From IMG/VR virus record IMGVR_UViG_3300037852_000225, positions 1-55,713 of that record: a stretch of 55,713 nt of DNA; one strand, given 5' to 3'. Position 1 is the first letter of the stretch; each line of letters opens with the position of its first letter. Below, one piece after another: positions 1 through 40,201 of the stretch. The notes under the pieces are model-generated. The model was not told the DNA's origin and made no database searches. It saw only the letters and a list, made by a program, of their open reading frames with translations. The translations under genes and the position numbers were made by a program. This DNA is from a virus (taxonomy: Duplodnaviria; Caudoviricetes).

Positions 1-127
1 TAGATGCTTCAATACCTCCAGCCCTCATTATTGAAGATTGTCTTGGATATACTGATATTTGTATCTTTTTGTCCGCAATGGGTTTGCGTCCGGATCCTTT
101 TCTTTTTCCACCTTGTTTTGATTTCAT
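1..127 (-). CDS. Partial small basic DNA-binding protein (GGKRKGSGRKP motif), runs off window edge
   Basis: Manual translation from ATG at 127: MKSKQGGKRKGSGRKPIADKKIQISVYPRQSS...; the GGxRxGxGR-P motif is typical of small phage DNA-binding proteins. Confidence 0.55.
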   Translation of the reverse strand, partial: MKSKQGGKRKGSGRKPIADKKIQISVYPRQSSIMRAGGIEAS

Positions 128-195
128 CCCACAATATAGATAATATCTTTACTAAATCAAAATTTATTTTATACCTTTATTTAAAATATTTTTCT

Positions 196-936
196 ATGTG
201 GTCAGCAATTAAAGGCTATCAAACAGTAGACCCAATTTCAGGACAGCCCGTATTCTTAATTGAATATGATAAAACTGAATTTAAGCCAATCCCAGGCCAC
301 AGGCAATATGTTATCAACTGTGATGGCTCTATCGTTAAGCGAATTATGAGCGAAAAACTATTGCGTAAATCAGAATTGAAGCAATCTTTCCACAAGGATA
401 AAGGCAAAGAGTATCCGCATGGGTATTGGTATGTTACGCTTTTGACCAAAGATGGAATTAATAGTCATCACGAAGTCATTGACCTTTCAGATAAGCTAAC
501 CCTTATTTCTATTCATCGACTTGTTGCAAAAACATGGTGCATCAATCCGGATCCAATTAATAATATCTGGGTCAACCATGAAGATGGCAATAAAATAAAT
601 AATCATTTCTCTAACCTTAAATGGGGAAGTATCTCATACAATATTCAGCATGCGCATGATACAGGCTTATCTAAAGTGCCTTCCGGATCCGATCATTGGA
701 ATTATGGCAAAACCTTAAGCAAAGAAACTAAATCACTGCAATCTATTGCCAAGCTTGGCGCCAAGCATCCTAAATTTAAAGGCTGGTATGTCGTTAATGG
801 AGTTGAATATGAAAGTTCTTATCTCGCTGCCAAAGCTATTGGCACATATCCTAAATGGGTTTGGGTCCATTGCATCCAACAACCACTGCAAGCAAATTAT
901 TTCAAATATATTGATGGATCGAATAATCTAAGGTGA
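196..936 (+). CDS. HNH homing endonuclease with C-terminal NUMOD-like DNA-binding region
   Basis: IHRLVAKTW...VNHEDGNKINNHFSNLKW HNH signature; HWNYGKTLSKETK NUMOD3-like; the ORF-track start at 4 overlaps the opposite gene, so ATG 196 is more plausible. Confidence 0.85.
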   Translation: MWSAIKGYQTVDPISGQPVFLIEYDKTEFKPIPGHRQYVINCDGSIVKRIMSEKLLRKSELKQSFHKDKGKEYPHGYWYVTLLTKDGINSHHEVIDLSDKLTLISIHRLVAKTWCINPDPINNIWVNHEDGNKINNHFSNLKWGSISYNIQHAHDTGLSKVPSGSDHWNYGKTLSKETKSLQSIAKLGAKHPKFKGWYVVNGVEYESSYLAAKAIGTYPKWVWVHCIQQPLQANYFKYIDGSNNLR

Positions 937-9012: not shown

Positions 9013-9783
9013 ATGCAAATAAAAAAATTAGGATGGGTACCTGACCTACCAGACGGAAGGGATCATCACTATAAAGCAAGGAGACTTCAACCAATCCAAT
9101 CAGTAAGTTTATGGGGGAAATATAAATCTTGTCTTAGCTATGACCAGTTGAACTTAGGAGCTTGCACTGGTAACGCTGTTTCATATTTGGTTCAATTTGA
9201 TCTTCTGAATAATTATGTTCAACAATTTGGTCCTGTTTTCCGCCCTTCAAGATTGTTTAATTACTGGTGTGCAAGATTTATTGAAGGGACGACAGCGCAA
9301 GATGCAGGCGCTTCACTAAGAGACAATATCAAAGCATTATACACCTATGGCATACCATCAGAGGATATATGGCCTTACGATGTTACAAAATATGCAGACC
9401 AACCAAGTCAGGAAGCACTTGACCAGGCTTTAAACTTCAGGGCAGTAAATTTTGAAAGTCTTGATAATACAAATAAACAATTACTTGTTAACTGCTTACT
9501 TGAAGGATTCCCTATTGCTTTTGGATTTACGGTATATGATAGTTTTATGAGCGATCAGGTTGCGGCTACAGGAATTGTTCCGATGCCAAATTTGTCAACA
9601 GAATCCGTGCAAGGTGGTCATGCAAATGTAATAGAGGGATATAGTCTTCCGAAAGATTCTTTCCTTTGCAGAAATAGTTGGGGGAGACAATGGGGTTTTG
9701 AAGGGAGCTATCTTATGCCTGCGGCATATTTAACTAACTCAAATCTGGCAGCCGACTTCTGGAAATTAAGTTTAATATTATAA
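9013..9783 (+). CDS. Papain-family (C1A) cysteine protease
   Basis: DQLNLGACTGNA (Gln, catalytic Cys), GGHA (His), RNSWG (Asn), PSRLFNY. Confidence 0.92.
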   Translation: MQIKKLGWVPDLPDGRDHHYKARRLQPIQSVSLWGKYKSCLSYDQLNLGACTGNAVSYLVQFDLLNNYVQQFGPVFRPSRLFNYWCARFIEGTTAQDAGASLRDNIKALYTYGIPSEDIWPYDVTKYADQPSQEALDQALNFRAVNFESLDNTNKQLLVNCLLEGFPIAFGFTVYDSFMSDQVAATGIVPMPNLSTESVQGGHANVIEGYSLPKDSFLCRNSWGRQWGFEGSYLMPAAYLTNSNLAADFWKLSLIL

Positions 9784-9785
9784 AT

Positions 9786-10322
9786 ATGTCAACAATAGAA
9801 ATACCACTTACAAAGGGAAAGTTTGCTATTATTGATTTTGAAGATTTAGAGTTTGTTATGAGATATAAATGGCATCTTGGTAGTAGGATCCGATCACAAT
9901 ATGCAATAAAAGTTTTAGGTAAAGGAGACGGAAAGAAGTATTTAAGAATGCACAATTATATTATGAATTGTCCTAACGGCAAGGTTGTAGATCATATAGA
10001 TGGGGATGGTCTTAACAACAAGAAGGCTAACCTAAGAATCTGCGATGATGGACAAAATAAATGCAACAGAAAGAAAAGTAGCACAACTAAAAATAGGTTC
10101 AAGGGGGCTATTTTTAGGGAGCGTAATAACCGCTGGATATGCCAAATAACCCATAAGAAGAAAAGGTACTACGTAGGTGAATTTAAAACAGAAATAGAAG
10201 CTGCTCAAGCCTATAATAAAAAAGCGAAAGAATTATTTGGAGATTTTTCTAATTTAAATGATTTTGGCTGGTCAGACGGTTTTGGGTTTTCATACGGTAA
10301 ACCTCAAGCCCAAGCGATCTAA
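9786..10322 (+). CDS. HNH endonuclease with C-terminal AP2 domain
   Basis: IPLTKGKFAIID, VDHIDGDGLNNKKANLR, YVGEFKTEIEAAQAYNKKAKELFGDF. Confidence 0.92.
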   Translation: MSTIEIPLTKGKFAIIDFEDLEFVMRYKWHLGSRIRSQYAIKVLGKGDGKKYLRMHNYIMNCPNGKVVDHIDGDGLNNKKANLRICDDGQNKCNRKKSSTTKNRFKGAIFRERNNRWICQITHKKKRYYVGEFKTEIEAAQAYNKKAKELFGDFSNLNDFGWSDGFGFSYGKPQAQAI

Positions 10323-11226: not shown

Positions 11227-11384
11227 TTTTCAAAAATTTTAGAGATTAAAAATCCGGTTATAAAAATTGGCCAGAACATTCCAAATATAAAAGCCCATCC
11301 TTTTCTCATCCCGCCAGGCTCTATCGCTGCATAAGTGCAGAAAACACTGATAATAAGATATTCTATGATGGCGATGGCGGTCAT
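11223..11384 (-). CDS. Small two-helix membrane protein (53 aa, absent from ORF track)
   Basis: MTAIAIIEYLIISVFCTYAAIEPGGMRKGWAFIFGMFWPIFITGFLISKIFEK; TAATG and ATGA overlaps with neighbours. Confidence 0.65.
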   Translation of the reverse strand: MTAIAIIEYLIISVFCTYAAIEPGGMRKGWAFIFGMFWPIFITGFLISKIFEK

Positions 11385-11986
11385 TAAGATGGTTTGTATT
11401 TCCAGACGAATTGTTTTGGTTTTTTAGTCTGACCATAAAGACAAAGTTTAATTGCATTCTCAGACATTACAGAAGTAGCATCTGTAATACTTTCCCACTC
11501 TCGAATAAATTTTCCATTTAAATCGTATTGCAAAATAATTTTCTTTTTTCCAGTCATCAATAATATAGACTCTTGTGATTTAATAAGTAATCCTTTTTTA
11601 GAAGCATGATTCATATTATATTCTTGATTACACCATTCTAAATTAGTAACATTATTATTTAACTTATTCCCATCAATATGGTTTACTTGTTTTAGATTTA
11701 AATTATTTTCAATAAATGCTTCAGCTACCATTCTATGAATTTTTCTAACCCATGGTTTTTTATTTATTACTATAGCTGCCTGAACATATCCAGTTTTATG
11801 AATATGCTGTGATATTATTTTAGGCTCAAGCGATCTCCATCCGTGCCCCACACCTCCATAGTAATATTTATATTTTCTTTTTAACCTACTGAAATTGCTT
11901 ATTAAGTACATACTTTCAAGGCCAACAACATCTCTCCAAATTTCACCATCAATATCCACTATTGATAAATTTTTCCAGTGTTCCAT
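11384..11986 (-). CDS. NUMOD4-HNH-NUMOD1 homing endonuclease
   Basis: EIWRDVVGLESMYLISN, IHRMVAEAFI...QVNHIDGNKLNNNVTNLEW, ILQYDLNGKFIREWESITDA. Confidence 0.93.
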   Translation of the reverse strand: MEHWKNLSIVDIDGEIWRDVVGLESMYLISNFSRLKRKYKYYYGGVGHGWRSLEPKIISQHIHKTGYVQAAIVINKKPWVRKIHRMVAEAFIENNLNLKQVNHIDGNKLNNNVTNLEWCNQEYNMNHASKKGLLIKSQESILLMTGKKKIILQYDLNGKFIREWESITDATSVMSENAIKLCLYGQTKKPKQFVWKYKPS

Positions 11987-12682: not shown

Positions 12683-13255
12683 TCATTGTTTATTTATTAG
12701 CCAACAGGAATCCATAAATTCAAGTTTCAGTCCTTTATGTTCAGCAAATTCATCAACTGCCTGCTTCACCCCTGCATGCGGCTGGAAGTAATCGTGGCCG
12801 GCGAAGATGCCGCCTTGAGTTACCTTCGGCCACCAAGCAGCCAAATCGGATTTCACAGACTCGTAATCATGAGCGGCGTCGATGAAGACAAAGCAAAAAT
12901 TATGATTAATTTCTTTTGCAGCCTCGACGCTTGACATTTTTACTACTTTAATGTGATCCCATATTCCAAGGTCCTGCATATTCATTTTAAAAGAAGTGTA
13001 CAAATTCCCTCTGCCATACTCTTTTATTACATCTTCGTGATGGCTACATTCAGGCTCAAATGTATCAACAGCGTATAGTACAGGCTTTGCAATACCAGCT
13101 CTTTTTAAAGTATCATATAGAAATGCAAATGATTTTCCCATAAATACCCCTACCTCACAGCACCATGCGCCATTGTGTTTTGTTTTCTCCACTGCCATAT
13201 CATACAGCCCTTCCCATTCGAACCAACCAACGATATCTTTATACGATGCTATCAT
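12683..13255 (-). CDS. Class I SAM-dependent methyltransferase (Methyltransf_24-like)
   Basis: EVGVFMGKS, YAVDTF, FVFIDAAHDYESVKSD, GGIFAGHDY. Confidence 0.9.
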   Translation of the reverse strand: MIASYKDIVGWFEWEGLYDMAVEKTKHNGAWCCEVGVFMGKSFAFLYDTLKRAGIAKPVLYAVDTFEPECSHHEDVIKEYGRGNLYTSFKMNMQDLGIWDHIKVVKMSSVEAAKEINHNFCFVFIDAAHDYESVKSDLAAWWPKVTQGGIFAGHDYFQPHAGVKQAVDEFAEHKGLKLEFMDSCWLINKQ

Positions 13256-14048
13256 ACTGTTGACGGTAATTTACCAGCCATGAAAAATCTTCCTGTGGAT
13301 AGAAATATCTCAATACTCTCATTATTTTTGAGAAGTTTTCAGGTTCGTAACCTGGCCTCCAAAGATGACAATCGATGGTGTCAGGCTTCAGCATTGTCTC
13401 CCACATGCCATCGTCACGGTCCAAGCGACGAGAAGCAAACTGTGTATTTGGATATGCCCTAGGATGCGGAATGTAATAATGAGTCCCCATAATGGCATTA
13501 TGCAAAAGTTCCTGATCCCGGGCCCAAAAATCCGATCTCATGTGTTCGGAGTCCAACGGTCCCAAATCCTCATCCAACATTTCCTGAAATGATTTATTCC
13601 CACAATTAAACACTTCTTTCCACTTTGCCGCACTCATCGAGCAAAAACAGATTGGAAATTGCCCTTGCGGTACAAGATCATTTCCCCAAATATGAATATT
13701 GTGGTCAACTTCAGTCAAGTCCTTAGAAAATATCGCCATATCCGCGTCTGACGTAATTAAGATTTCATCACCATCAATAAAATCAAGGCATCCTCCAAAT
13801 AATCGAACGCATTGTGAATAAGTCGGCTCTTTGTGCTTTGGGCAATTAAAAAATAAAATGTAAGAACGAGCTACACCTTTTATTTTCAATTCAGTTAATG
13901 TTTCGAGTACCAATTTTGATTTGTCTGTCAGTGGTCCCATTGGCATGAATATAATAGTGTCCACTCCAAGTTTTGCCCAACAATATGCTGTTATTGGCAG
14001 GGAAAATAGATATTTGTCATCTGTAGTGCTTGAAATTATTGCTATCAT
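13239..14048 (-). CDS. Putative glycosyltransferase (GT-A, DxD)
   Basis: SQCVRLF, ITSDADM, WARDQELL, RLDR, DCHLWRP; cluster context. Confidence 0.6.
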   Translation of the reverse strand: MIAIISSTTDDKYLFSLPITAYCWAKLGVDTIIFMPMGPLTDKSKLVLETLTELKIKGVARSYILFFNCPKHKEPTYSQCVRLFGGCLDFIDGDEILITSDADMAIFSKDLTEVDHNIHIWGNDLVPQGQFPICFCSMSAAKWKEVFNCGNKSFQEMLDEDLGPLDSEHMRSDFWARDQELLHNAIMGTHYYIPHPRAYPNTQFASRRLDRDDGMWETMLKPDTIDCHLWRPGYEPENFSKIMRVLRYFYPQEDFSWLVNYRQQYDSIV

Positions 14049-14725
14049 AAGCCACCTATAAAGAAGTATACCCTCTCCGGGTCATAATTTGTACTATAAT
14101 AACTAACAAAATCGACATATTCGAATTTTATTCCGAGCCTGTGTATTGCAAGGCTAAAAATTGATTGATCCTGGCGCCCATGAAGAAATCTTGGATCGGA
14201 ACTATCCTTAAGATCATGTGACCTGTTTGTTTTAAACAGTCCCAGCTCATATCCTTCCTGCCAAAGTTTCCACACATTATCAGCATCTTTATTATGCTGC
14301 CTAAGTCCAACCATTCCAGTTGCAATTTCAGGAAGTTGTTCGGCATCATCCCTTGTAATACCAGCCCATTCGAGCGCTGCATCGCTGCAAGTCTGGGCAC
14401 AGTTGTATCCTGTTCTGAAAGCGAATATCCCTTCATGATTTATGATATCAAATATTGGCATTGGATTTTTCACGCACCAAAAGGATGAGTCCAGCCACAT
14501 CACAACGTCATGTTCTTTGAAAGCCTCACGAAATGCTGCAATCTTGAATCCGTATGGGTTGTGGTTATGATCTTCGGAATTTGGCGGGTACTCATCCTTC
14601 CACAACATTAATTCACCAGGGTAGCCATGGTACATTAGTGAACGCTCAAGGCGCTCGGTGCCTCTTTTGTACCAGTTGCCAATGCCGGCATTAATGATGA
14701 CCGGAAGTTTACCGTTCAGCTCCAT
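14045..14725 (-). CDS. Putative glycosyltransferase (nucleotide-diphospho-sugar transferase fold)
   Basis: PYGFKIAAF...VMWLDSS...HGRQDQSIFS. Confidence 0.65.
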   Translation of the reverse strand: MELNGKLPVIINAGIGNWYKRGTERLERSLMYHGYPGELMLWKDEYPPNSEDHNHNPYGFKIAAFREAFKEHDVVMWLDSSFWCVKNPMPIFDIINHEGIFAFRTGYNCAQTCSDAALEWAGITRDDAEQLPEIATGMVGLRQHNKDADNVWKLWQEGYELGLFKTNRSHDLKDSSDPRFLHGRQDQSIFSLAIHRLGIKFEYVDFVSYYSTNYDPERVYFFIGGL

Positions 14726-14946
14726 ACCCTTTCGGATTTATATTTTCCTTTAATATTTTTTGCAAAGTAAGTACCTGTGCTGGCTGCATCTTTGAAACTT
14801 TCGAATACATCCGCTTGAACGGAATAAAAATCCCATACCTGACCATTCAGGAACCATACTCTCAATGTCTCTGTTGAAGTATTGTAGCCTATTGCATCTA
14901 TATTTGAAGATGCCACTTCTATTTTATCTAATCCCGTATCTTTCAT
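14716..14946 (-). CDS. KTSC domain protein
   Basis: VASSNIDAIGYN...LRVWFLNGQVWDFYSV...FKDAASTGTYFAKNIKGKY; start placed at MKDTG. Confidence 0.88.
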   Translation of the reverse strand: MKDTGLDKIEVASSNIDAIGYNTSTETLRVWFLNGQVWDFYSVQADVFESFKDAASTGTYFAKNIKGKYKSERVWS

Positions 14947-15574
14947 TGAATGGAGTTGAAACGTGCTGGTAAAAATATATTTCTTCGTCAATATGAACTT
15001 CCTTTAACAGCATTGGTTTGATTAATCGTGCGAACTCATGGTCCTCCCCGAAGCGGCTATCAGACACTCCTATATGAACACAATAGTCTGTTCGAATAAC
15101 ATCTTTGAAAAATGGAGTACGGTGAAAGTTGAATCCATCCTCGAATATGCCATTACCTTCTCCTTCCCAGTCAGGATATTTTATGGAGTGATTTGATTTA
15201 TATTTCCTTCCATCGATAGTTACTTTTTCCATAAAGGTTACGCAATCGGGGTTTGTCTTAAGAGCCAGCATGACCAGTTGCAACCCATTTTCAGAAATCC
15301 AATCATCGGAATCCACCTGCCATGAATACTGCCCGGTACTCATTTTATACATCCGGTCACGCTTCTCTCCTATTGAAATTTCCTTATTATCCCGGTAATA
15401 CATAACCTCAATATCTTCTATTCTAAAGCCACCGCAATCTTCCACATCATGTATAAACCCAATTTCAGGAGATTCTGGATACATGAGTTGCGCCTGACGC
15501 AAAAATTCCAACATCAACCGTTCATCCTGCGGTTTTCTGTCATAAGTAGTTGGTATTTGTATTGACAACATCAT
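14924..15574 (-). CDS. Glycosyltransferase family 2-like
   Basis: LSIQIPT, SIGEKRD, WQVDSDDWIS, GEDHEFA, IYFY. Confidence 0.8.
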   Translation of the reverse strand: MMLSIQIPTTYDRKPQDERLMLEFLRQAQLMYPESPEIGFIHDVEDCGGFRIEDIEVMYYRDNKEISIGEKRDRMYKMSTGQYSWQVDSDDWISENGLQLVMLALKTNPDCVTFMEKVTIDGRKYKSNHSIKYPDWEGEGNGIFEDGFNFHRTPFFKDVIRTDYCVHIGVSDSRFGEDHEFARLIKPMLLKEVHIDEEIYFYQHVSTPFNERYGIR

Positions 15575-15819
15575 AATTTATTCGCCATTAACTCAATCAA
15601 TACTGTTTCGAAATGAAGTTCTTTTGATCTTTCATAGGTATTTGTCCCTACCATCTTCGGAGTTACGCACTCATATAGTAATTTTTCAGAATCACGGTAT
15701 TTTATTACCGTCTTGAAACATTCTCCATTTTGAATGGAAAATGAATGCCAGGATGTCTCGACGATAAAACGGTCACCGATTTTATGCGCCAGTTTTACGA
15801 TTAATTCGTCAGGGATCAT
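15571..15819 (-). CDS. Hypothetical protein
   Basis: 82-aa ORF with 4-nt overlaps in the operon. Confidence 0.6.
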   Translation of the reverse strand: MIPDELIVKLAHKIGDRFIVETSWHSFSIQNGECFKTVIKYRDSEKLLYECVTPKMVGTNTYERSKELHFETVLIELMANKL

Positions 15820-15932
15820 TTTAAAAGGTTTAGTGCCAGCATCATTACCGTTATTGCAAGCATAAATGCAACTAACTTTAGTAATAGGTTCATGTTTCTT
15901 GACATTCTGATTAATTCATCAATTTTATTCAT
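15816..15932 (-). CDS. Small single-helix membrane peptide (38 aa, absent from ORF track)
   Basis: MNKIDELIRMSRNMNLLLKLVAFMLAITVMMLALNLLK; ATGA overlaps at both ends. Confidence 0.55.
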   Translation of the reverse strand: MNKIDELIRMSRNMNLLLKLVAFMLAITVMMLALNLLK

Positions 15933-16609
15933 AAGTCAAAGTTTCTTGCTTTACGTTGATTGAAGTTATCCTGATCGAAATTCCAGTCGTCTTGCTGTCT
16001 GTTGAACAAGGCGTCTTTTGGTAGATGTCCGTAAGCAGGATTCCAGTGATGCACGATTGGGATCCCTGCATAAAAATACTTTCCCTTTATTTGAGAAATA
16101 TTCATTATATCATTGTCACACCAAAGGGATTTGTACGATGGATGGTATATATATCCCATTTGTTTAATGAACGGTTTGCCTGCCACATAAAGCGTTGCCA
16201 GCATATCTTTGGCATCTTGGTCGGGCCAATGTCCAAGGGCGTCAAAGTCTGGAAAATTGCATCGGAATCCTTCCCTAATGATTTGATCCCATCCATAAGC
16301 GATAAACCGCATATCATCAGAAAAGCAGATAAGTATTTCAAAATCGATTGATAGTATTTCATCAAGATCCCTGTTAAAAGCATGGACCTTAGACTCTGAT
16401 TTTCCGAATATGGAACGGATGTTTCGGTAGCTGTTCAGTTGGCCAATTATATCAGGATTATTCATTGAATTGTCATCTTCATCCAAAGTACAAATGACAG
16501 CCATATAATCCGGGTTGGCGCATAGTCTATAAATTGTTTCCATTCCGTCAAAGAACCGTTTTGGCCTTTCCCGGGATACATATTTTATAAGGATGCGCGC
16601 CTCGCTCAT
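15929..16609 (-). CDS. Glycosyltransferase family 2-like
   Basis: ILIKYVSRERP, LDEDD, SKVHAFNRD, FSDDM, YHPSYKSLWCDND. Confidence 0.8.
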   Translation of the reverse strand: MSEARILIKYVSRERPKRFFDGMETIYRLCANPDYMAVICTLDEDDNSMNNPDIIGQLNSYRNIRSIFGKSESKVHAFNRDLDEILSIDFEILICFSDDMRFIAYGWDQIIREGFRCNFPDFDALGHWPDQDAKDMLATLYVAGKPFIKQMGYIYHPSYKSLWCDNDIMNISQIKGKYFYAGIPIVHHWNPAYGHLPKDALFNRQQDDWNFDQDNFNQRKARNFDL

Positions 16610-16800
16610 GTTTTAGGTTGGTATTTAGGAATGAGCTGTTTTTCAACACCCTCGTTATCATACCACAGGGCTTTTTTCATTTCTTTGGTATTGCGCTTGA
16701 AAATGATATCCATGGCAGCGTTCTCGGTTGTTATTTTCCGGAATCCCTCCCAGCTTCCGTTGGCCCACTGTATCCTAAGATTATTGCGCATTGAATACAC
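16606..16800 (-). CDS. Hypothetical protein
   Basis: Short ORF coupled to the GT2 gene; start may be MRNNLR. Confidence 0.5.
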   Translation of the reverse strand: MYSMRNNLRIQWANGSWEGFRKITTENAAMDIIFKRNTKEMKKALWYDNEGVEKQLIPKYQPKT

Positions 16801-17068
16801 GTTTTAGGATGCTGTTCGTTTGCTTGATTGTTGAAGTCAGTTCGCTATTGTCGGAAGTTGATCCTCCCTGGATGGATGTCGTTCCGTTTTCTTCCCAGAA
16901 ACCGGCCACGCCATAAACTATAAAAATCACCACTTCTGTCATCAGGCCCACTGTAAGGAAAAAATTTGCACCTGGCTTATGTAGCAATTTCATCCATGCG
17001 CCAAATATCACAATGGAGGCTCCTATTGAATACGCGAAGTTCAGCACTGTTGTTTTGTTTATTTTCAT
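16781..17068 (-). CDS. gldL: Truncated GldL/PorL homologue (two-TM motor module plus short tail)
   Basis: NFAYSIGASIVIFGAWMKLLH...LTVGLMTEVVIF aligns with the GldL N-terminus as I recall it (NFAYGMGAAVVIVGALFKITH...GLLTEALIF); only about 35 aa follow TM2. Confidence 0.85.
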   Translation of the reverse strand: MKINKTTVLNFAYSIGASIVIFGAWMKLLHKPGANFFLTVGLMTEVVIFIVYGVAGFWEENGTTSIQGGSTSDNSELTSTIKQTNSILKRVFNAQ

Positions 17069-17274
17069 ATTATTACTATTTTAAAAAATTAGGTACATCA
17101 TTTGGACTACTACCAGGGTATGCTTACACTTCTGGTACTTTTTATATTACTTGGGCAAAGAAATATACAGTTTTCGGGTATTTTCGACCACTGGTACTTG
17201 ATTTTTTGCTTTCTGGTTTGGATAGGTGCTTACCTGGCTTTGAGAAAAAACAAATATTTAAGCGATCTGTGAGG

Positions 17275-17322
17275 TCATACTATTTTCTCCGTCAATTTTT
17301 TAACTTCCTCCAGCATCCATAG
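17275..17322 (-). pseudogene. Orphan 3' end (LWMLEEVKKLTEKIV*) of the 54-aa gene at 18127-18291
   Basis: Shares a 15-bp identity and peptide similarity with LWMLEQIKKLINNLK* of that gene. Confidence 0.6.
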
Positions 17323-18175
17323 TTATTTTTTGTTAATATTAGTCCAATGTGTTAATTGAACATACCCGCCATCAACTTTGATAATAACTATTGGGTCTCT
17401 AAAAATGTTCCTTGGGACAATCCTGAAATTTCTTACATTTTTTCCAACGGTATCCATTAAAGATATTTCAGCAACTATTCTTAAAGGCATATCAACTTTT
17501 TCAATAAACACTTGGTCAAGATGTTTTAAGTCTTTGCAGCCGTACAACATTTTAATGTCTTTTACATATTTGTAAGCGTTATCTCCACGATTGCGTTCGC
17601 CAATGGAAAATACGCCATTTGTAGGAACTTCAGGTTTAAGTGACCCATCTGGATTTAATCTTTCTGGCTTTAAATCATCCCTTGTTATTTCCTTCTTCCA
17701 TCCATTTTCATGTGTAAGGATATATCTATCTTCAGGGTTCCCAAGTTTGTTTAACATTAATGTTATTTCATCAATATTAGCAGGAGGTATTTCTCCTTTA
17801 AAATCTGATATTTCACCAATAATTAGATAGTTTTCATTGCATATTTTTGTCAGCCCTTCATCCGAAATAAATACAAATCCTTTAGCCTCCCACTCATTGT
17901 ACAGCTTTGGATTTAGTATTTTGTCATAAGTCAAATCTTTGTCATTAAGGTTTGCAGATTTTAAAAACCCCAATTTATGAAGTGATTTTAATTGACCTGC
18001 CGTATAATTCCCTTTCAATTTTACAGGCTTAGTATCTGAAGCTGGATGGCTTGCAGCCAAAAATATACATCCAGATATAACAAGTAAACAAATGATTGTG
18101 GTTAAAATTTTCTTTTTCATAAACTATTATTTTAAATTGTTAATTAGTTTCTTAATCTGTTCCAGCATCCATAGT
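17309..18175. repeat. 15-bp direct repeats TCCAGCATCCATAGT flanking the 265-aa gene
   Basis: Identical copies at 17309-17323 and 18161-18175. Confidence 0.85.
17323..18120 (-). CDS. Hypothetical protein with N-terminal signal/TM helix (AT-rich inserted gene)
   Basis: MKKKILTTIICLLVISGCIFLAA; C-terminal RDPIV...LTHW. Confidence 0.75.
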   Translation of the reverse strand: MKKKILTTIICLLVISGCIFLAASHPASDTKPVKLKGNYTAGQLKSLHKLGFLKSANLNDKDLTYDKILNPKLYNEWEAKGFVFISDEGLTKICNENYLIIGEISDFKGEIPPANIDEITLMLNKLGNPEDRYILTHENGWKKEITRDDLKPERLNPDGSLKPEVPTNGVFSIGERNRGDNAYKYVKDIKMLYGCKDLKHLDQVFIEKVDMPLRIVAEISLMDTVGKNVRNFRIVPRNIFRDPIVIIKVDGGYVQLTHWTNINKK

Positions 18176-18351: not shown

Positions 18352-18789
18352 TTAGAAGTTTATGCCTACCCCTGTTAACAGGACAAATTGCTGTTGGGTG
18401 AAATCATACCCCGGACCTAATTGAATAATTCCAGCGGTTCCTGGTATACCAACAGCCAATCCGGCTGTTCCTGTAATTTGTTTTCCATTGGTGCCAATAA
18501 ACCCAAGTAAAGAAACCGAATATTGAATGACCCATGAATTACTTGGTGTATCGAACTTATCGTGAAGGAACGCGACGCCAAAACCTCCCGCAAGTGAAGC
18601 ACCTGTTGAAACGGTAGCGGTTACATCAACAATCGGTTTAAAGAAGTTTTTAGTGAGTGCTGTCGGTGCCGCAGTCCCTAATCGATGGGTTGCCTTCTCG
18701 GATTCAGTTGGCAATGCAGCTTTCTTAAAAAACTGCGCATTAACAGATAACGATCCCGCGATTGCCAATAGGAAAAATAATACTTTCAT
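18352..18789 (-). CDS. Secreted putative outer-membrane beta-strand protein
   Basis: Signal peptide ending VNA-Q, amphipathic Gly-rich strands, C-terminal GVGINF. Confidence 0.65.
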   Translation of the reverse strand: MKVLFFLLAIAGSLSVNAQFFKKAALPTESEKATHRLGTAAPTALTKNFFKPIVDVTATVSTGASLAGGFGVAFLHDKFDTPSNSWVIQYSVSLLGFIGTNGKQITGTAGLAVGIPGTAGIIQLGPGYDFTQQQFVLLTGVGINF

Positions 18790-18812: not shown

Positions 18813-19079
18813 TTATTTGGCTTCTTCAACTACTAAATAAATTTCAGATGCGTTCATGAGTTTGTATTTTTCATCATCATACCACTGAACGACACCCAAG
18901 TGTGACGGATAACTTACAATTTCGCCTTTTTTAATGACATCTGACGCAGATGCCATTACTATTGCATCCTCCATGATCTCTGTTACTGTACCTGGAATTA
19001 AAATTCCTCCTTTTGACCTTTCAGGCATCGGTAGTGGCTTTACGATTACCCTATCAAAGACTGGGCGGGGTATGCTCAT
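18813..19079 (-). CDS. groES: Co-chaperonin GroES (Cpn10)
   Basis: RPVFDRVIVKP...ERSKGGILIP...KKGEIV...YKLMNASEIYLVV. Confidence 0.9.
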   Translation of the reverse strand: MSIPRPVFDRVIVKPLPMPERSKGGILIPGTVTEIMEDAIVMASASDVIKKGEIVSYPSHLGVVQWYDDEKYKLMNASEIYLVVEEAK

Positions 19080-19219: not shown

Positions 19220-19267
19220 TAAATGTATGTAGTTTGTGCGTAGGTACCAAATTTATTTTTATATTTG
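19220..19267. promoter_or_regulatory. Divergent Bacteroidota-type promoters between the accessory and structural operons
   Basis: Plus TATATTTG at 19260-19267; minus TACATTTA at 19220-19227 with TTTG 20 nt upstream (19248-19251). Confidence 0.6.
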
Positions 19268-19270
19268 CTT

Positions 19271-19597
19271 ATGGCGCACCCTATCTATATAACCTTCAAA
19301 TTTGAGGAAGATTTGTTTATATGCCAGTGCAAATGGCCACATTACATCTGCAAAGTGGAGCATAAGCCAAATCAAAAAATCCACTCTATTCAGGTGGCAG
19401 GCTATGAAATTTACTGCAACTTCGCTGGAACTCTGGCCGGGTATTATGTTCCAATGGATAAAGCTAAGGTTGCCGAGATTCCAAAGGTATTTGAAGAAAT
19501 GGCGATATTTTATTTAATAGAAAGGATAGGTAAATTCCCAAAAAGGTATGAAAAGTATAAAATCCCCAGTGCAAGAAGTACCGGTAGCACCGCGTAA
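19271..19597 (+). CDS. Hypothetical protein
   Basis: ATG 19271 immediately after the promoter box; intact ORF. Confidence 0.6.
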   Translation: MAHPIYITFKFEEDLFICQCKWPHYICKVEHKPNQKIHSIQVAGYEIYCNFAGTLAGYYVPMDKAKVAEIPKVFEEMAIFYLIERIGKFPKRYEKYKIPSARSTGSTA

Positions 19598-20228
19598 CAA
19601 CGTGATTGTCAAAATTTCGCAGCGTTTTTACGATTCCGTGAAGTTTGATTCAGGCGTCGTCCTTTATTTCGATCCGTCCTGGGATCCGTCAGAATATGCG
19701 ATGCTTGAAGGGGTCGTTGAATCTGTGCCAAGATCAATCATGAAACGAAAGGACTATGAAGGATTTTCGGCAGATGGCATCAAGCGTGGCGACAGGATAC
19801 TTTTCAGGTATGATGTAATTTTTTCATATTTATCGCAACCGGACCGTGATTCAGTGAGGTTTAAGAATGAAATATGGTGGCATGAAACATCCTACTGGAA
19901 AGTTGATATTCAGAAAATATTCTGTACCGTTCACGGCGATGCCAAAAGTTTCAGCGGCCTAAAATATTCTATGCTTAACGGGTACGTCCTGTGCGACCTG
20001 ATTACAGAATACAAGTCAGACCTGTATTCCGACAACATTATCCGACCGGAATCTGAAAAAATGGTGGTAAGGCTGGACCGTGCAAAAGTGAAAGCTATTG
20101 GTGAAAACAACCTTGAAGTTCAGCCGGGAGATACGATCTGGTTTTCTCCAAAAATACCGCAGGTGTACTCCCTTAACCGTAAAAAATTCATCATCGTCAG
20201 CCAAAGGCATATATTGGCTGTAACATAA
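19548..20228 (+). CDS. GroES-like (tandem Cpn10-fold) phage protein
   Basis: GVVESVP...IKRGDRILFRY and AKVKAIG...VQPGDTIWF...IIVSQRHILA repeats. Confidence 0.6.
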   Translation: MKSIKSPVQEVPVAPRNNVIVKISQRFYDSVKFDSGVVLYFDPSWDPSEYAMLEGVVESVPRSIMKRKDYEGFSADGIKRGDRILFRYDVIFSYLSQPDRDSVRFKNEIWWHETSYWKVDIQKIFCTVHGDAKSFSGLKYSMLNGYVLCDLITEYKSDLYSDNIIRPESEKMVVRLDRAKVKAIGENNLEVQPGDTIWFSPKIPQVYSLNRKKFIIVSQRHILAVT

Positions 20229-31279: not shown

Positions 31280-32020
31280 ATGAGAAAAATAAAATATAAT
31301 CATAAACATTGCATCGCTTGTGGAAAAGAGATGATTAATGAAGGTCCTGCAAGAGTAAGTCAAAAAGTATGGGCCAATAAAAAATATTGTTCTCGCAAAT
31401 GTAGAAGAACCGAATCTCAGCCTGGATATGTTGAGAGTAAAATTTGCCCAACATGTGGAATTATTTTTCGCAGAAAAAAAAATCATAGAGGCATTCTGTG
31501 GACAGATAAGGTATATTGTTCTTCAAAATGTTGCAATTCACGTAAAGAGAGAAAAAGAGTGATGCAAAATTGTGTGATATGTGGTAAATCGTATAATCCA
31601 CGAGGAGTTATAGCGAATAGTAAAACTTGCTCGCATATTTGTGCCGGTAAACTTCATTCTAAAAATACTATGGGTGCTCGCCATAATTTATGGAATGGTG
31701 GTAGAGTTAAAACAAGACAGGGTTATATTAGAATCTGGATATCAGAAGATCATCAGTTGGCTTCTATGAAACCAAAAGGAAGTAATCATATATTGGAACA
31801 CAGATTAGTTATGGCAGAAATTTTAGGTAGGCCGCTATTTGATTGGGAAACTGTCCATCATAAAAATGGTAAAAAGGACGACAATAGAAAAGAGAATCTT
31901 GAATTAAGGACCGGGCATCACGGACAAGGAGCAACCCACCATTGTCAAACATGCACTTGTGGACAACGACTTGAATTAACAGAGAATCCTATTTTTCAAA
32001 TTTGGAGTAAAGCAGTTTAA
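31280..32020 (+). CDS. HNH endonuclease with N-terminal zinc-finger repeats
   Basis: Three CxxC...CSxxC units; EHRLVMAEILGRPL...VHHKNGKKDDNRKENLEL. Confidence 0.9.
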   Translation: MRKIKYNHKHCIACGKEMINEGPARVSQKVWANKKYCSRKCRRTESQPGYVESKICPTCGIIFRRKKNHRGILWTDKVYCSSKCCNSRKERKRVMQNCVICGKSYNPRGVIANSKTCSHICAGKLHSKNTMGARHNLWNGGRVKTRQGYIRIWISEDHQLASMKPKGSNHILEHRLVMAEILGRPLFDWETVHHKNGKKDDNRKENLELRTGHHGQGATHHCQTCTCGQRLELTENPIFQIWSKAV

Positions 32021-32968: not shown

Positions 32969-33835
32969 ATGCTGTTACCATTACAATTAAACAATCTGAT
33001 GGGGGCAACCCTAACGCTGGCCCTTTCAGATTCGGTTACTACTTCGGATGCTGTGGTAAAAAAGATTCAACCGGCAGCGTTTGCGGATTCGGCAACCAGT
33101 AGTGACACGGTTGTAAAGAATATACAGCCTTTAAAGGCAGATTCAGTCACTTCAAGTGATTCGGTAGTAAAAAATATCCAGCCGTTAAAATCTGACAGCG
33201 TAACATCTTCAGACACGGTTGTGAAGACGATAAAACCTGTAAAGGCTGATTCGCTCACAAGTTCTGATGCGGTTACGAAAAGCAGTCAGCCCCTAAAGGC
33301 AGATTCGGTCACAAGTTCCGATGCTGTCATTAAAACAATCGAACCTGTTAAGAGTGACTCGGTAACAAGTTCTGACTCGGTAATTAAGTCGGTTAGACAA
33401 ACAAAATCAGACTCTGTAACAAGTTCCGACGCTCTTTCAAAGACTGATGCTCTTTTAAAAACTGATTCCGTTTCGACCCAAGATTTGCTTACCACTTCCG
33501 AAAGATTTGCATTGGGATTGTCAGATATTGTAGTTGGTTCGGATGGGGTTATTAAGCAACAGGTTACAAGTAAATCGGATGCGGTCGTTTCGGGTGATGG
33601 AATTCAATTACAGACACAACTTATTAAATCTGATGCCGTTACGGTATCAGATGCGCTTGTTGAAGGAATTACGCATTTGGTTTCTGTTAGCGATTCGGTG
33701 ATTGCCAATGATAATGTAACATTTACAATCACTGGTAGTGGCGATGGCAGGAAACGAAAATCAAGGAAATGGGAAGATGAGGAAGCATTGCATCAAATTT
33801 TGCAAACATTTCTATTATGCCAGGAGGATTTATAG
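32969..33835 (+). CDS. Ser/Thr/Asp-rich repeat protein (putative fibre)
   Basis: About 9 clear 18-aa repeats DSVTSSDxVxKxxxPxKx, then degenerate copies. Confidence 0.75.
   Translation: MLLPLQLNNLMGATLTLALSDSVTTSDAVVKKIQPAAFADSATSSDTVVKNIQPLKADSVTSSDSVVKNIQPLKSDSVTSSDTVVKTIKPVKADSLTSSDAVTKSSQPLKADSVTSSDAVIKTIEPVKSDSVTSSDSVIKSVRQTKSDSVTSSDALSKTDALLKTDSVSTQDLLTTSERFALGLSDIVVGSDGVIKQQVTSKSDAVVSGDGIQLQTQLIKSDAVTVSDALVEGITHLVSVSDSVIANDNVTFTITGSGDGRKRKSRKWEDEEALHQILQTFLLCQEDL
33029..33480 (+). repeat. 54-bp period coding tandem repeat
   Basis: Repeat-initial Asp codons at 33086, 33140, 33194 and onward (54-nt spacing); codons diverged. Confidence 0.85.
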
Positions 33836-36800
33836 ATTGTTTAGGTAAAAGTGGACTATCTCCAGCGGAGAGGAACTATGTTCTGGCTCAACAGCAACTT
33901 CATATCAAATCAGGACTTGGCGAAGATGAAGCTGCCATCGAATCTGTAAAAAACCTGCATCATAAAACACTCGATTCACTAAACCAAGTTTATTCAGACC
34001 TTAAAATTAAAGGATATGCCGTTCCAAAGCGAAGCGCAACGAAGGATGATGTGGTTAAAGCACCCGGCGATAGCAGCAAGGTGGGCAAAGGAGATGAAGG
34101 CCAAGGGGCAAAGCCAGAAGAACCTGCCATACCACAAACACCAGGCACAACAGTCGTCCGCCATGGCACATCGGTAGAAGACACCCAGAATGTGCTTAGT
34201 GGCCAGAGTCAGACACCAATTACAGAAAAATCCAAAGCAGAAGAGATTCCGAAGCTAATACAAGACCTGCAAGACAAGGGAATTTCTCCTACAAAAGTAT
34301 ATTCTTCTGACCTCATGCGGGGAGCACAGACCGCTGCCGAGGTAGCAAAAGCGTTTGGCGCAGAGCATATTCAGGACCCTAATCTTCGCTCATGGGATCT
34401 TGGTGAGTTCTCTAAAACCGGGGATGAAGCGTTTAAACCAGCGCAGAGGTTCTTCGTTGACAACCCTGATGCTAAAGAATTTGAAGGTAAGAAACTGGGA
34501 GAATCATTCAATGAGTATAAGAACCGTGTTATCAAGGCCAGGAAAAATATCCCTGATGATCCGGCAAACTTGGTTGTGGACCATTCCAACAATATGGCAG
34601 TGAACGATGCCTATGAAAAAAATGGTAAGCAGTGGAACGACCAGGCTAAGGAAGACTACATGAGCACAAAAAATGCCGCTCCGGCTGAACTTCCAGACAA
34701 AACACTCATAAAAGATCAGCCGCAGGCTTTTAAAGATTTCTACGATACATTCAAAAATGAGATAAATTCGGTTAAAAATAGCGAGTACGATTGGCGGGTT
34801 AACATTCCGGATATGACGCAATCCGAAAGAGAAGCCGCTGTAAGGGATATAGATGCCGGCAAACAGACAAAACGAGCAGAAAAATTCCTTACCGCACTAA
34901 AAGAGCAGCATGACGACGGGAATATTCAGTATACAAGAGGCCGTGGAGCCAATGTTGAAAAAATGTCTATTCCTACCGCAAAATGGAATGAGGCGGAAGA
35001 ATATGTTGTAAGGGATATCGGTTCCGGTTTCATCCCAATGAAAGATATTGGAGATTTATTTGAACAAGAAATTAAACGCAATGATTATGGCAAAGAAAAA
35101 CTTCCAGATGTTTCAGAGTCACGTTCAGCAGACACCGGGCATAATGAAACTGATGCAAAGGCTGGACCGTCCACAGCAGGTGCAGGCGATGAAAAACGTG
35201 TACCACCGGATGGTAAAGGCAAAGGCAATGAGTCTAAGCAACAAGATAGAGGAAACGAACCCGTATCCACCAATTTCCGCACCAAAGACGAGTTTGAGTT
35301 AGGACTTAAAAAAGCCCTCAAAGGACCACCCTCCGATCCTGTTGTACCAAAGCTGGATGTCTCTGATGAGCAGATAAGGTATGCCCGGCGCAACAGTTAC
35401 CCAGAGTATAAGAAAAAATATGGTGGCACCCAGGACGAGTATAATATCGTCCGTGCCCAGAAGGCACTGGCTAAAGTTGGTGACCGTGGCCAAGGGGTAA
35501 CTCCTCCGCAATATGCCGATCCTGTTAAAGCACTTCAAACTATTCGTGCAGAGCATGACGACCCACTTATGAACCGGGCGGCTAACTTCTTGGAACCCAT
35601 AATGAAGGCCAACCCGAATATCCATATCGAAGACGCTGACCTTGGCGGGCGGGTGTTGGGTCTCTCTCATCCTGATGGCCGTATACAGGTTGATTTCTCG
35701 GCACACGGGAGCATGGAAGATGCTCACCGGACCATCCTGCACGAACTCTTTCACGCCGCTACGAGAAACGAAATTGAAAAGAATCCTGCTTTTCGTGGAG
35801 AAGTGAGGTCCATGCTTGAAGAAATAAGGAAACAGATGGGGCTCCCAAAAGGTAATGTTGGTGACGTGCTTATACCGGAACTGGTAAGGCGTGACATTAT
35901 CCCGGCTGATAAATATGGCACGTCTAATGAACATGAACTGATTGCAGAGGTGTTCTCCAATCAGAAGTTTCGTGATATGCTGGCTGATATGAAAGTTCCT
36001 GATGAACATAAAAAAAATATGCTCCAAAGGGTTTATGAAGGAATAGTCCGTTATTTCAACCGCCAGTATGATGCTCTTAAAAACCTGAAAGATAAGATTT
36101 CCGCTCCCAATATGGCTGAACACCTGATGCAACTTACCGAAGGAACAGTGAAGGGAGGAAAGACTGAAGGGGAGGCATTTCCAAAGCTGAAAGGTGCAGA
36201 TGAAGAAGACGCTATTGCAAATATGGTGAAGCGGGCACCTGATTCCATGACGGATCAGGAACTAAAAGAGTCAATAATGAAACATTCGTCTCTGGATGAG
36301 GCAAAAGTGGATGAGTTGATTAAGGCAAGAGGTCTTACGCCAGAGGTCAAATTGAGCCATGCAATTCAGGATATTGCAAAGAATAAAAAGACACTCGATG
36401 CAAAAATAGATGCTGCAAACAAATTGACAGCACAAGAAAAATCTGACATAGCAGGTTCAAAAGTAAGTTCTGCTATTTCACCAATTAAGAAAGTATTTGA
36501 TAAACTAAAATCGACAGCGATAGCAGTAAAAGACGCTTATGTAAACAAACCTGAATGGAAAAGCATGGATAAGGCTATTGGTGAATACAGTTACTCAAAG
36601 CAAAAAAATGATAAGGAAGTAATGGATATGGTAAATCATTTGACTAAAATGATTCCAGACAAAGGCAAAAGAGAAGCAATTTCTAACTGGATAGAAGCTG
36701 GTGGTGATATGAATATGTTAAAAGAAAGGGCTGAAAAATCGGATGCTAAACACAAGGGTGGTTACATATTGGCACAGCATTTAACACCATCTGAAATAGA

Positions 36801-39379: not shown

Positions 39380-40201
39380 ATGATAACCAAGGTATGCAAG
39401 ATATGTAAAGTTGAAAAAGATATATCTGAATTTCATAAACAATCTAACCGACCATGGTATGAACCATATTGCAGACCTTGCGATAAGGAACGTAGAAGAG
39501 AATATAGGCTTAAAAATAAGGTAAAAATAGCAGCTGTACTAAAAAAGTGGCATGAGGATAACCGAGATATACAAAATGCTAAAAATAAAGCCAATTATCA
39601 TAAAAATAAAGAAGCAATTTGTGCAAAAAATAGAGAAGATAAGAAAGATAAATGGCCTGAAATATATAAAAGTAGAGCAGGATACCGAGAACGTACAAAA
39701 GAATACGCATCTGCATGGCAAAAGGAATATAGAAAAAAGAATAAGCAAAAACTCTCTGAATTAAATAAAAAATACAGAATTGAAAATGCAGAAATTTTAA
39801 AAATTAAAAGTAGAAGTTGGCTTGATAAAAATAAAGTTTTGGTTAGAGAAAGTAAAAAGAAGTATAAAAAAATGAAGATTGCTACAGATCCTGGTTATAA
39901 AATTAAATGTTTATTGCGAGGGCGTATATATAAAGCAATCAGAGGCTTAGATAAAAGGGAATCTACTTTAACTTTATTAGGGTGTTCTGTTGATTATTTC
40001 AAATCTTATTTCGAGTCTTTATTTACAGAAGGCATGAATTGGGATAAATTTATGAACGGAGAAATTCATATGGATCACATTAGACCGTGTGCTTCATTTG
40101 ATTTAACGATAGAGGAAGAGCAAAGGAAATGTTTTAATTATACTAATATTCAACCTTTGTGGGCTATGGATAATTTCATAAAAAGTAAAAAAATAGTTTA
40201 A
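39380..40201 (+). CDS. HNH endonuclease with Zn ribbon and long basic helical region
   Basis: KVCKICKVEK...CRPC; LLGCS...GMNWD...HMDHIRPCASFDL...FNYTNIQPLWAMDNFIK. Confidence 0.88.
   Translation: MITKVCKICKVEKDISEFHKQSNRPWYEPYCRPCDKERRREYRLKNKVKIAAVLKKWHEDNRDIQNAKNKANYHKNKEAICAKNREDKKDKWPEIYKSRAGYRERTKEYASAWQKEYRKKNKQKLSELNKKYRIENAEILKIKSRSWLDKNKVLVRESKKKYKKMKIATDPGYKIKCLLRGRIYKAIRGLDKRESTLTLLGCSVDYFKSYFESLFTEGMNWDKFMNGEIHMDHIRPCASFDLTIEEEQRKCFNYTNIQPLWAMDNFIKSKKIV

Follow-up and report, generated by a model that had tools for sequence, protein, structure and literature searches.

The motor of type IX secretion and gliding in Bacteroidota is built from the membrane proteins GldL and GldM. 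According to published reports, it has the composition GldL5GldM2, in which two GldM helices are surrounded by ten from GldL; only residues 3-62 of GldL are ordered, with 153 cytoplasmic residues unseen, and in Flavobacterium johnsoniae its cytoplasmic domain comprises residues 66-215 (10.1101/2020.05.11.089193). The same source reports that E49 of GldL is invariant and pairs with R9 of GldM, and that substitutions of E49, Y13, K27 and H30 impair the motor. Contact via the transmembrane (TM) segments alone suffices for the GldL-GldM interaction, E49A abolishes function, and E59 is required for gliding and not for adhesion (PMC8986121). The membrane-proximal cytoplasmic coil of GldL forms a cage, and GldL is described as mainly vertically inherited, its phylogeny mostly tracking the species tree (10.1101/2022.01.28.478170). 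The cytoplasmic domain is also a docking site for the regulator PorX (PMC10951265). Here we describe a short GldL homologue, mini-GldL, encoded by a Caudoviricetes phage sequence of 55,713 nucleotides (IMG/VR record IMGVR_UViG_3300037852_000225, positions 1 to 55,713; this whole stretch is called the window below). It belongs to a family common to phages and Chitinophagaceae chromosomes that is previously undescribed in the literature searched.

Mini-GldL shares with GldL and PorL a homologous TM hairpin with N10, K27, H30 and the glutamate of the second TM helix (TM2), and all of them are found only with Bacteroidota. GldL and PorL are, however, 200-330 amino acids long, have a cytoplasmic domain of about 150 residues and are encoded in a gldKLMN operon, whereas the phage protein has 95 residues, lacks these features and scores below the cut-off of TIGR03513, the NCBIfam equivalog model for PorL/GldL. 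In addition, GldL is described as mainly vertically inherited, while the mini-GldL of the window is phage-borne. The parts of the gene, with the predicted local distance difference test (pLDDT) values of an AlphaFold2 model and the hidden Markov model (HMM) of the tail described below, are the following.

16781..17068, minus strand: mini-GldL coding sequence, ATG start, 95 amino acids; matches Pfam GldL_N and aligns to GldL/PorL chains of the PDB
16985..17056, minus strand: TM helix 1, residues 5-28, with N10, Y13 and K27 (AlphaFold2; alignment to TM helix 1 of 6ys8)
16892..16969, minus strand: TM helix 2, residues 34-59, with the E45 codon at 16934-16936 (AlphaFold2; alignment to solved GldL chains)
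16850..16891, minus strand: disordered linker, residues 60-73 (pLDDT <50 for residues 63-74; length and sequence vary in the mini-GldL family)
16787..16849, minus strand: conserved C-terminal helix, residues 74-94, with the pattern ELTxxxKxTNxILxxVF (AlphaFold2; family alignment; tail HMM)

The Pfam profile GldL_N (PF22827) matched residues 12-55 at 65.9 bits (E 3.8e-18), well above its gathering cut-off of 24. TIGR03513 gave 50.7 bits against a cut-off of 68.3 and covered only profile positions 2-48 of 247. A phmmer search of PDB chains matched five GldL/PorL structures (7sat, 7sau, 7saz, 6ys8, 7sax). In the alignment to 6ys8 (F. johnsoniae GldL), N10, Y13, K27 and H30 have the same numbers in both proteins, and E45 aligns with the TM2 glutamate, which is E49 of F. 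johnsoniae; the offset arises because the loop is four residues longer in F. johnsoniae GldL. The AlphaFold2 model, built with 26 family sequences, contains the two hairpin helices (pLDDT ~90), the disordered stretch and the final helix (mean pLDDT 78). The two-TM hairpin with the TM2 glutamate and the K/H pair at its periplasmic end that characterizes GldL is present, only 36 residues follow TM2, and the cytoplasmic domain of ~150 residues is absent. Mini-GldL is therefore predicted to be an inner-membrane protein made of a GldL stator hairpin with the proton-coupling residues K27, H30 and E45, a short linker and one conserved cytoplasmic helix.

Much of this had been anticipated. The first-pass annotation, a reading of the letters, had described a 95-residue open reading frame (ORF) related to GldL, with N10, Y13, K27, H30 and a glutamate in GLMTE, two TM helices and then about 35 residues, and the translation, the 6ys8 alignment, the model and the GldL_N score agree with it. 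Its account of the GldL5GldM2 motor and of the role of E49 likewise matches the sources (10.1101/2020.05.11.089193, PMC8986121). PHROGs contained no family for mini-GldL, lysis families included; no PADLOC model was matched by eight proteins scanned (mini-GldL, four neighbours, two ORFs of locus L048 and a 144-residue viral form); and a word-index homologue search returned nothing beyond the protein itself.

When 1.84 billion representatives were searched exhaustively without a profile, 709 proteins were found at E <=1e-3 and 22 at <=1e-10. The best ~25 of the 709 are 90-115 residues long and align from residue ~5 to residue ~93 at 35-57% identity. In a 26-protein alignment, M1, A17, V20, K27, H30, L38, G41, L42, E45 and F49 are invariant, and a C-terminal pattern (E-L, then N, L and F/Y at fixed spacing) is conserved after a linker of variable length; therefore, the 36-residue stretch that follows TM2 is no random stump. 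We define the mini-GldL family as proteins of 90-130 residues with the GldL_N hairpin, a variable linker and a C-terminal helix with ELxxxxxxxNxxLxxxF, a description that fits the window protein. In a cluster look-up, the ten nearest relatives were singletons on contigs of 1-24 kb, with one cluster mate on a 61-kb contig.

The first-pass annotation had regarded the gene as a truncated GldL. The alignment and the tail HMM instead reveal a conserved family with a C-terminal helix of its own, and we are confident that mini-GldL is a functional member of it. It is exceedingly improbable that the gene is a decaying, functionless remnant of a captured gldL. The protein is indeed far shorter than GldL and falls below the TIGR03513 cut-off; however, its reading frame is unbroken and both its start and its end are conserved, the family members align over their full length at the identities given above, the tail is conserved, the relatives are under purifying selection, and the gene has been kept in a distant phage relative.

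The tail ties the phage protein to bacterial ones. An HMM of the last 26 residues of chromosomal mini-GldLs scored the window tail at 34.1 bits, compared to 7.1 for the best of 960 shuffles; the same model gave 23.9 bits for protein P0002 and 9.1 bits for the mini-GldL of a related phage contig (L206). As this derived tail is common to the phage protein and Puia-type mini-GldLs, they form one family. Over the whole protein, identity between the phage mini-GldL and the Puia/Flavitalea-type ones is 41-45%. They share the length class, the hairpin-linker-helix layout and the homologous tail, and group weakly on a tree. They differ in that the chromosomal proteins have housekeeping synteny and a full GldL in the same genome, and some lack H30, while the genome bin of the phage copy has no chromosomal mini-GldL. 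We met no published name for these chromosomal paralogues.

No comparable tie to full-length GldL tails was found. With an HMM of 30 such tails, the window scored -4.7 bits (maximum of 1040 shuffles, 4.2), and only P0018, a short library protein, was matched (19.5 bits). Profile comparison by hhalign of the mini-GldL tail and the full-length GldL tail gave P 0.034 over 13 columns, and with whole profiles the tail was placed on differing internal GldL helices, not significantly; the 144-residue viral class compared with the C-terminal tail of full-length GldL was not significant either. A derivation of the tail from the C-terminal helix of full-length GldL, the region of the hydrophobic PorX-binding patch in PorL, thus has no significant support and is kept as a lead only.

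A maximum-likelihood tree was constructed from 94 sequences and 64 N-terminal columns, with the tail excluded. The window protein falls within a weakly supported group (87/83) of 46 rows, together with all 24 chromosomal mini-GldLs (inside a 99/89 clade), 19 short library proteins, the L206 mini-GldL and one long-branched full-length GldL. The GldL of the genome bin that holds the phage contig sits with full-length Chitinophagaceae GldLs. A second viral class, of 141-146 residues, is nested in a full-length GldL clade of another family (97/82), and the short library proteins P0018, P0024 and P0022 (92-115 residues) group with yet another full-length clade, which suggests independent internal deletions joining the hairpin to the C-terminal helix in these three. 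Thus, GldL seems to have been shortened on more than one occasion, and phages seem to have gained GldL_N genes at least twice. A host origin of the window gene would be compatible with the N-terminal tree, which does not tell the direction of transfer between phage and chromosome.

The first-pass annotation had named a grouping with short GldL-related proteins unlinked to the motor as the outcome that would speak against a motor role. The tree comes near to this outcome, as the window protein groups with short paralogues unlinked to gldKLMN, but genomic unlinkage is silent on function. The genomes concerned have a single GldM beside two GldL-type proteins, and K27 and the TM2 glutamate are invariant.

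Among the 2.9 million IMG/VR contigs, we found 13 GldL_N loci, three encoding mini-GldLs (90, 116 and 87 residues) and ten encoding the 141-146-residue form; two narrower IMG/VR scans added no further loci. The 90-residue protein is encoded on L206, a 38.6-kb contig from a distant relative of the window phage: 11 ORF pairs show 23-54% identity, among them structural genes and the GroES/glycosyltransferase/KTSC module found around the mini-GldL gene in both phages. The gene is thus retained in phages, in the same module of a syntenic relative and on two further viral contigs. The 141-146-residue class (L006-L015, marine-type IMG/VR contigs) is also phage-borne, shortened and keeps the K, H and E residues, but has a separate origin and a longer, different tail; one of its carriers, L008, has a terminase 29% identical to that of the window. 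Among isolated phages (INPHARED, 50,697 records), the mini-GldL and the 144-residue form matched only MT839621.1. This record (L212), labelled 'UNVERIFIED: Bacteriophage sp.', was rejected as a phage carrier: it is a bacterial porP-K-L-M-N fragment with genes for PorP/SprF, a GldK-like FGE-sulfatase, GldL, GldM, GldN, a DDE transposase and an AbiEii toxin-antitoxin pair.

Scans of metagenomes and named genomes used narrower alignments and are biased toward "VIFGAWAK"-type sequences. In metagenome contigs, 80 loci were kept of 237 confirmed relatives: 47 complete mini-GldLs (<=146 residues), 29 full-length GldLs and four genes cut at a contig end. Ten of the mini-GldL genes reside on contigs of 93 kb to 2.96 Mb, and Pfam annotation of 129 ORFs around them revealed neither phage hallmarks nor gldK/M/N. 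Three contexts recur across these contigs: DUF92, one or two varying ORFs, mini-GldL, PadR and a 175-residue ORF, with PEP mutase one or two genes further; NIPSNAP, mini-GldL, Amidase_2 and GNAT (with an extra ORF on either side of mini-GldL in L100, and SusC/SusD upstream in L119); and RsmF, a methyltransferase, an unknown ORF, mini-GldL, thymidylate synthase and signal peptidase. As a separate observation, in five of the ten loci (L048, L058, L075, L076, L114) the gene is followed on the same strand by the PadR regulator and the unknown ORF of ~175 residues (e.g., L048:8001-9198), which could be a small regulated operon.

In named genomes, 20 of the 80 loci listed encode mini-GldLs, from Puia metagenome-assembled genomes, Puia dinghuensis CGMCC 1.15448, Flavitalea sp. 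BT771, "Sphingobacteriales bacterium 50-39" and other Chitinophagaceae. All four chromosomal-mini-GldL genomes searched have exactly one full-length GldL_N frame (258-262 residues) and one mini-GldL frame (103-126 residues), and the GldM N-terminus occurs once per genome in five of five (these four and the window's own bin). Therefore, mini-GldL has no private partner of the GldM kind. In an evenly drawn sample of 401 genomes of the phylum, 99 had a match, and the only end-to-end mini-GldL match came from the phage contig; the other short frames were one of 97 residues (E 2.7e-6), one of 77 residues with a stop and three of 161-168 residues. Chromosomal mini-GldLs are therefore lineage-restricted.

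K27 and E45 are invariant across the 94 sequences, mini and full-length alike. H30 is present in 86 of them; the eight exceptions, with Q, T or S, are all chromosomal mini-GldLs (8 of 24), and the four phage mini-GldLs retain K27, H30 and E45. The N10 position holds N or D/E in most sequences. Y13 is variable, being V in 24 of 38 full-length GldLs, so that of the five-residue pattern on which the first-pass annotation had leaned the residues are all present in the window protein, but the pattern is less diagnostic of GldL than it had appeared. Selection was estimated with Nei-Gojobori dN/dS in nine pairs of chromosomal mini-GldLs and in two pairs with the window. In eight of the nine pairs, synonymous sites were unsaturated and dN/dS was 0.09-0.23, and the ninth was saturated; the chromosomal genes are thus under purifying selection. 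The window pair with L003 was saturated, and that with L054 gave dN/dS 0.19 at dS 2.85, near saturation.

The window corresponds to the reverse complement of bases 1-55667 of contig C95 (76,998 bases), part of a 4.44-Mb assembly of 157 contigs, which is a bin of a Chitinophagaceae-like genome from soil. The last 46 bases of the window (55668-55713) occur nowhere in the assembly, the rest being identical to C95, and the source of the window seems to be a version of this contig that differs slightly. Its DNA is present in two soil-metagenome DNA runs, one of them possibly the source, and no RNA run was listed as containing it. The GC content of the phage contig and of the bin is 0.395 and 0.402, respectively. 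The bin is a placement of the contig and the host is unproven, because the DNA is known from soil metagenomes and the link to the host was made by metagenomic binning.

The contig that carries mini-GldL is a phage. Comparison of the 51 window ORFs with PHROGs identified a large terminase (phrog_6681, E 8e-86), a portal protein (phrog_6547, E 1.5e-51), DNA polymerase/primase, two virion structural proteins, two GroES-like and two glycosyltransferase-like proteins, four HNH endonucleases and one endonuclease VII-like protein. The 21 kb of C95 outside the window are also phage-like, with a C5 DNA methylase, DUF551, DUF7222, a Peptidase_M15_4 endolysin and a 1287-residue PKD-domain tail-like protein, and Pfam found no integrase and no housekeeping gene there. 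The terminase matched 101 phage records, none of which reached 60% identity (the 15 matches listed have 29.8% or less), mostly from phages of Flavobacterium (68), Cellulophaga (15), Tenacibaculum and Maribacter.

The mini-GldL gene is outside any gldK-gldL-gldM-gldN cluster. As the first-pass annotation had noticed, the window has no motor partner genes: no GldK, GldM or GldN family was found among 39 window ORFs with Pfam or all 51 with PHROGs, and C95 has no match to the GldM N-terminus. The single GldM match of the assembly is on contig C127, after the sole true GldL of the bin, a 256-residue ORF (C127:56880-57650, 74.1 bits); the ORFs on either side of this gldL-gldM pair have lengths that would suit gldK and gldN, a match in size only. 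Mini-GldL is 52% identical to this GldL over 46 TM-core residues, and nothing else aligns.

How mini-GldL acts can be proposed from these data. During infection, it would insert in the host inner membrane and replace GldL around the GldM TM helices, either in homopentamers or in mixture with host GldL. Motor units formed in this way would conduct protons without the normal cytoplasmic part, and type IX secretion system (T9SS) and gliding output would be changed, most probably lowered or uncoupled. The phage could gain from the loss of T9SS-dependent receptors and motility, that is, superinfection exclusion, or from redirecting or saving the proton-motive force. Contact with GldM is proposed because mini-GldL retains just that portion of GldL which the motor structures resolve and which suffices for GldL-GldM contact, and its placement in GldL positions is the simplest reading because the genomes have two GldL-type proteins and one GldM. 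An invariant membrane-buried glutamate is also hard to explain without an interaction of the GldM-arginine/GldL-glutamate type, and outside this motor there is no evident reason for the periplasmic lysine to be invariant either. The data establish the homology, the architecture, the family membership, the phage location, the conserved core residues and the lack of a second GldM; we infer binding to GldM or GldL, the way in which motor output would change and what the phage would gain.

A block of the motor would have a selective logic because loss of gldK, gldL, gldM and sprA makes Flavobacterium resistant to phages. In a study of F. psychrophilum, phage-resistant isolates carry mutations in these and other gliding genes, with loss of function leading to resistance, and T9SS-secreted adhesins are suspected phage receptors (PMC9804748). 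The effect of mini-GldL on the motor would depend on what the missing cytoplasmic domain does and on which partner the tail helix has.

We lean slightly towards the view that mini-GldL engages the GldLM motor at all. That it takes the place of GldL and alters motor output is, taken as a whole, our best explanation and a tentative one, falling somewhat short of an even chance, and a net inhibitory action with a superinfection-exclusion or takeover benefit is doubtful. An unlikely, more specific version joins these elements: the minimal stator would capture the only GldM of the cell, the 5:2 units would idle or stall without the cytoplasmic domain, and gliding and T9SS receptor display would be switched off within one infection cycle, while the chromosomal proteins would serve as an endogenous clutch or brake, with the gene exchanged between phages and bacteria.

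Several points weigh against the explanation by altered motor output. Binding and any phenotype are predictions. Complex prediction with four mini-GldLs and two copies of residues 1-50 of the bin's GldM, a non-native stoichiometry (native 5:2) run without controls, scored 0.01 and weighs neither way. The link to the host rests on binning, on the similar GC content and on the Bacteroidota-infecting phages among the terminase relatives. The variability of Y13 weakens the residue pattern, and as H30 is replaced in a third of the chromosomal mini-GldLs, a portion of the periplasmic contact between GldL and GldM is sometimes missing. No full-length GldL helix is significantly tied to the tail. The N-terminal data are thin: an approximately unbiased (AU) test did not reject a clade of the window protein with the bin's GldL (p 0.43). 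Finally, the chromosomal members lie in housekeeping contexts and are under purifying selection, so being a poison is not inherent to the family, which may tune or complement the motor instead of blocking it.

The last point leads to an auxiliary or alternative stator with a positive role. In this case, mini-GldL would form working, lighter motor units with GldM, or tune speed, direction or regulation, and the phage would keep or re-tune T9SS and gliding, as in Puia-type bacteria. The chromosomal copies are stable, syntenic and selected beside a normal GldL, all proton-coupling residues are kept, and the conserved cytoplasmic helix suggests a specific docking partner, in the way that the cytoplasmic domain of GldL docks PorX (PMC10951265). 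However, no benefit of sustained gliding to a lytic phage is known, the missing cytoplasmic domain is conserved in all true GldLs, and no T9SS C-terminal sorting domain was found among the phage ORFs scanned with Pfam, so that there is no evident export cargo. We hold this role to be improbable.

The hairpin could also pentamerize around another single-pass partner, of host or phage, or act alone, unrelated to the motor. The absence of gldK/M/N linkage in the ten chromosomal and five viral mini or short loci examined, the loss of H30 in some chromosomal proteins and the differing contexts (PadR, Amidase_2, ThyA) are compatible with this. Yet no conserved neighbouring gene for a single-pass partner was seen across the contexts examined, the family is confined to Bacteroidota lineages with GldLM, and its TM core shows the same degree of conservation as that of true GldL, which leaves such a function a small chance.

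The surroundings of the mini-GldL gene bear on the proposed action in the envelope, in which mini-GldL replaces GldL. The following features flank it.

17069..17322, minus strand: non-coding gap of 254 nt upstream of mini-GldL, with no ORF on the gene's strand
17323..18120, minus strand: predicted lipoprotein of 265 amino acids, upstream neighbour, with a signal peptide ending in Cys (translation)
18352..18789, minus strand: secreted protein of 145 amino acids, upstream neighbour, with a signal peptide and a C-terminal Phe
18813..19079, minus strand: GroES-like co-chaperonin, 88 amino acids, near the head of the leftward gene string (Pfam Cpn10, E 6.6e-10; phrog_3188)
16606..16800, minus strand: ORF of 64 amino acids (ORF call), sharing 20 nt with the 3' end of the mini-GldL gene
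13239..16609, minus strand: downstream module with glycosyltransferase-like genes (15929-16609, 14924-15574), a KTSC protein (14716-14991) and two unknowns (PHROG, Pfam)

The lipoprotein has no Pfam, PHROG or PADLOC family and no usable Atlas match. For the 145-residue protein, Atlas gave viral clusters at 0.95 and a structure like beta-barrels of outer-membrane proteins (OMPs; TM 0.4-0.66), and Phage_OMP is a lead only (0.86); it is probably a small outer-membrane beta-barrel. Together with inner-membrane mini-GldL, these two proteins make a three-layer envelope module possible, and the position of mini-GldL after them in one leftward string looks like part of an envelope-directed module. The 64-residue ORF has no PHROG, Pfam or PADLOC family and no TM segment visible in its translation. 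Orthologues of the downstream module, 38-54% identical, surround the mini-GldL gene of L206.

TAnnTTTG motifs (Bacteroidota-type -7) occur on both strands at 19248-19267, likely a divergent promoter region. It lies between the co-chaperonin gene and a second GroES-like gene on the plus strand (19548-20228; 226 residues, Cpn10 domain C-terminal). The 254-nt gap upstream of mini-GldL contains no exact TAnnTTTG motif, and the motif is not enriched in the window; a sigma-70 promoter and terminator scan performed no better than shuffles, the sigma-70 model being ill-suited to Bacteroidota.

Other observations concern the phage at large. The HNH homing-type and endonuclease VII-like genes are scattered over the window (4-936, 9786-10322, 11384-11986, 31280-32020, 39380-40201), an unusually high load. 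In the structural region, a protein of 1658 residues (33817-38793, plus strand) has a His_Phos_1 (histidine phosphatase) domain at residues 113-258, possibly an enzymatic part of a giant virion or ejection protein. A 256-residue ORF (9013-9783, plus strand) has a weak Peptidase_C1 (papain-family) match (E 4e-7) and is also a peptidase in PHROGs.

The setting also bears on lysis. Class II holins resemble mini-GldL in size and topology, and the protein could be a lysis-timing or proton-leak protein of the two-TM, N-in/C-in, class II holin or antiholin type, its GldL ancestry being incidental. Among the 141-146-residue viral genes (ten IMG/VR loci), that of L008 (5986-6420) lies directly upstream of an ORF matching GTA_holin_3TM (L008:6423-6824), ~2 kb from the terminase gene. 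On C95, however, the sole recognisable endolysin, Peptidase_M15_4, is ~29 kb from mini-GldL, so that the gene is not next to an endolysin; the GroES/glycosyltransferase module around mini-GldL is conserved in the related phage; the chromosomal members are found among housekeeping and not lysis genes; and the invariance of K27 and E45 matches motor chemistry and not the variability of holins. This makes a lysis function quite improbable.

The proposed altered motor output has a parallel in other phages. Tip and Aqs1 of Pseudomonas phages are small soluble proteins that bind the pilus ATPase, inhibit type IV pili and block superinfection. Mini-GldL shares with them the proposed logic only, a small phage protein disabling an apparatus needed for later adsorption; they are unrelated proteins, whereas mini-GldL is a homologue of a motor subunit and its inhibitory action is a proposal. 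In the literature searched, no short, truncated or phage-encoded GldL and no virus-encoded modulator of type IX secretion or gliding is described; one report describes phage genes with T9SS sorting domains, not motor genes (PMC7468147).

The finding is richer than the first-pass claim of a phage inhibitor because the family spans phages and chromosomes, and less clear-cut because the protein is not a phage-made truncation and inhibition is only proposed. Few ion-driven rotary machines are known, and the GldLM motor is one of them. A hairpin with one helix is a natural dissection of the stator, evolution's minimal unit, and a simple reagent for the role of the missing domain. The carriage of GldL genes by phages also qualifies the published view of mainly vertical GldL inheritance. 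Should the phage protein interfere with the motor, type IX secretion and gliding would have a modulator encoded by a virus, and this would represent a new route of superinfection exclusion in Bacteroidota, where loss of T9SS gives broad phage resistance (PMC9804748).

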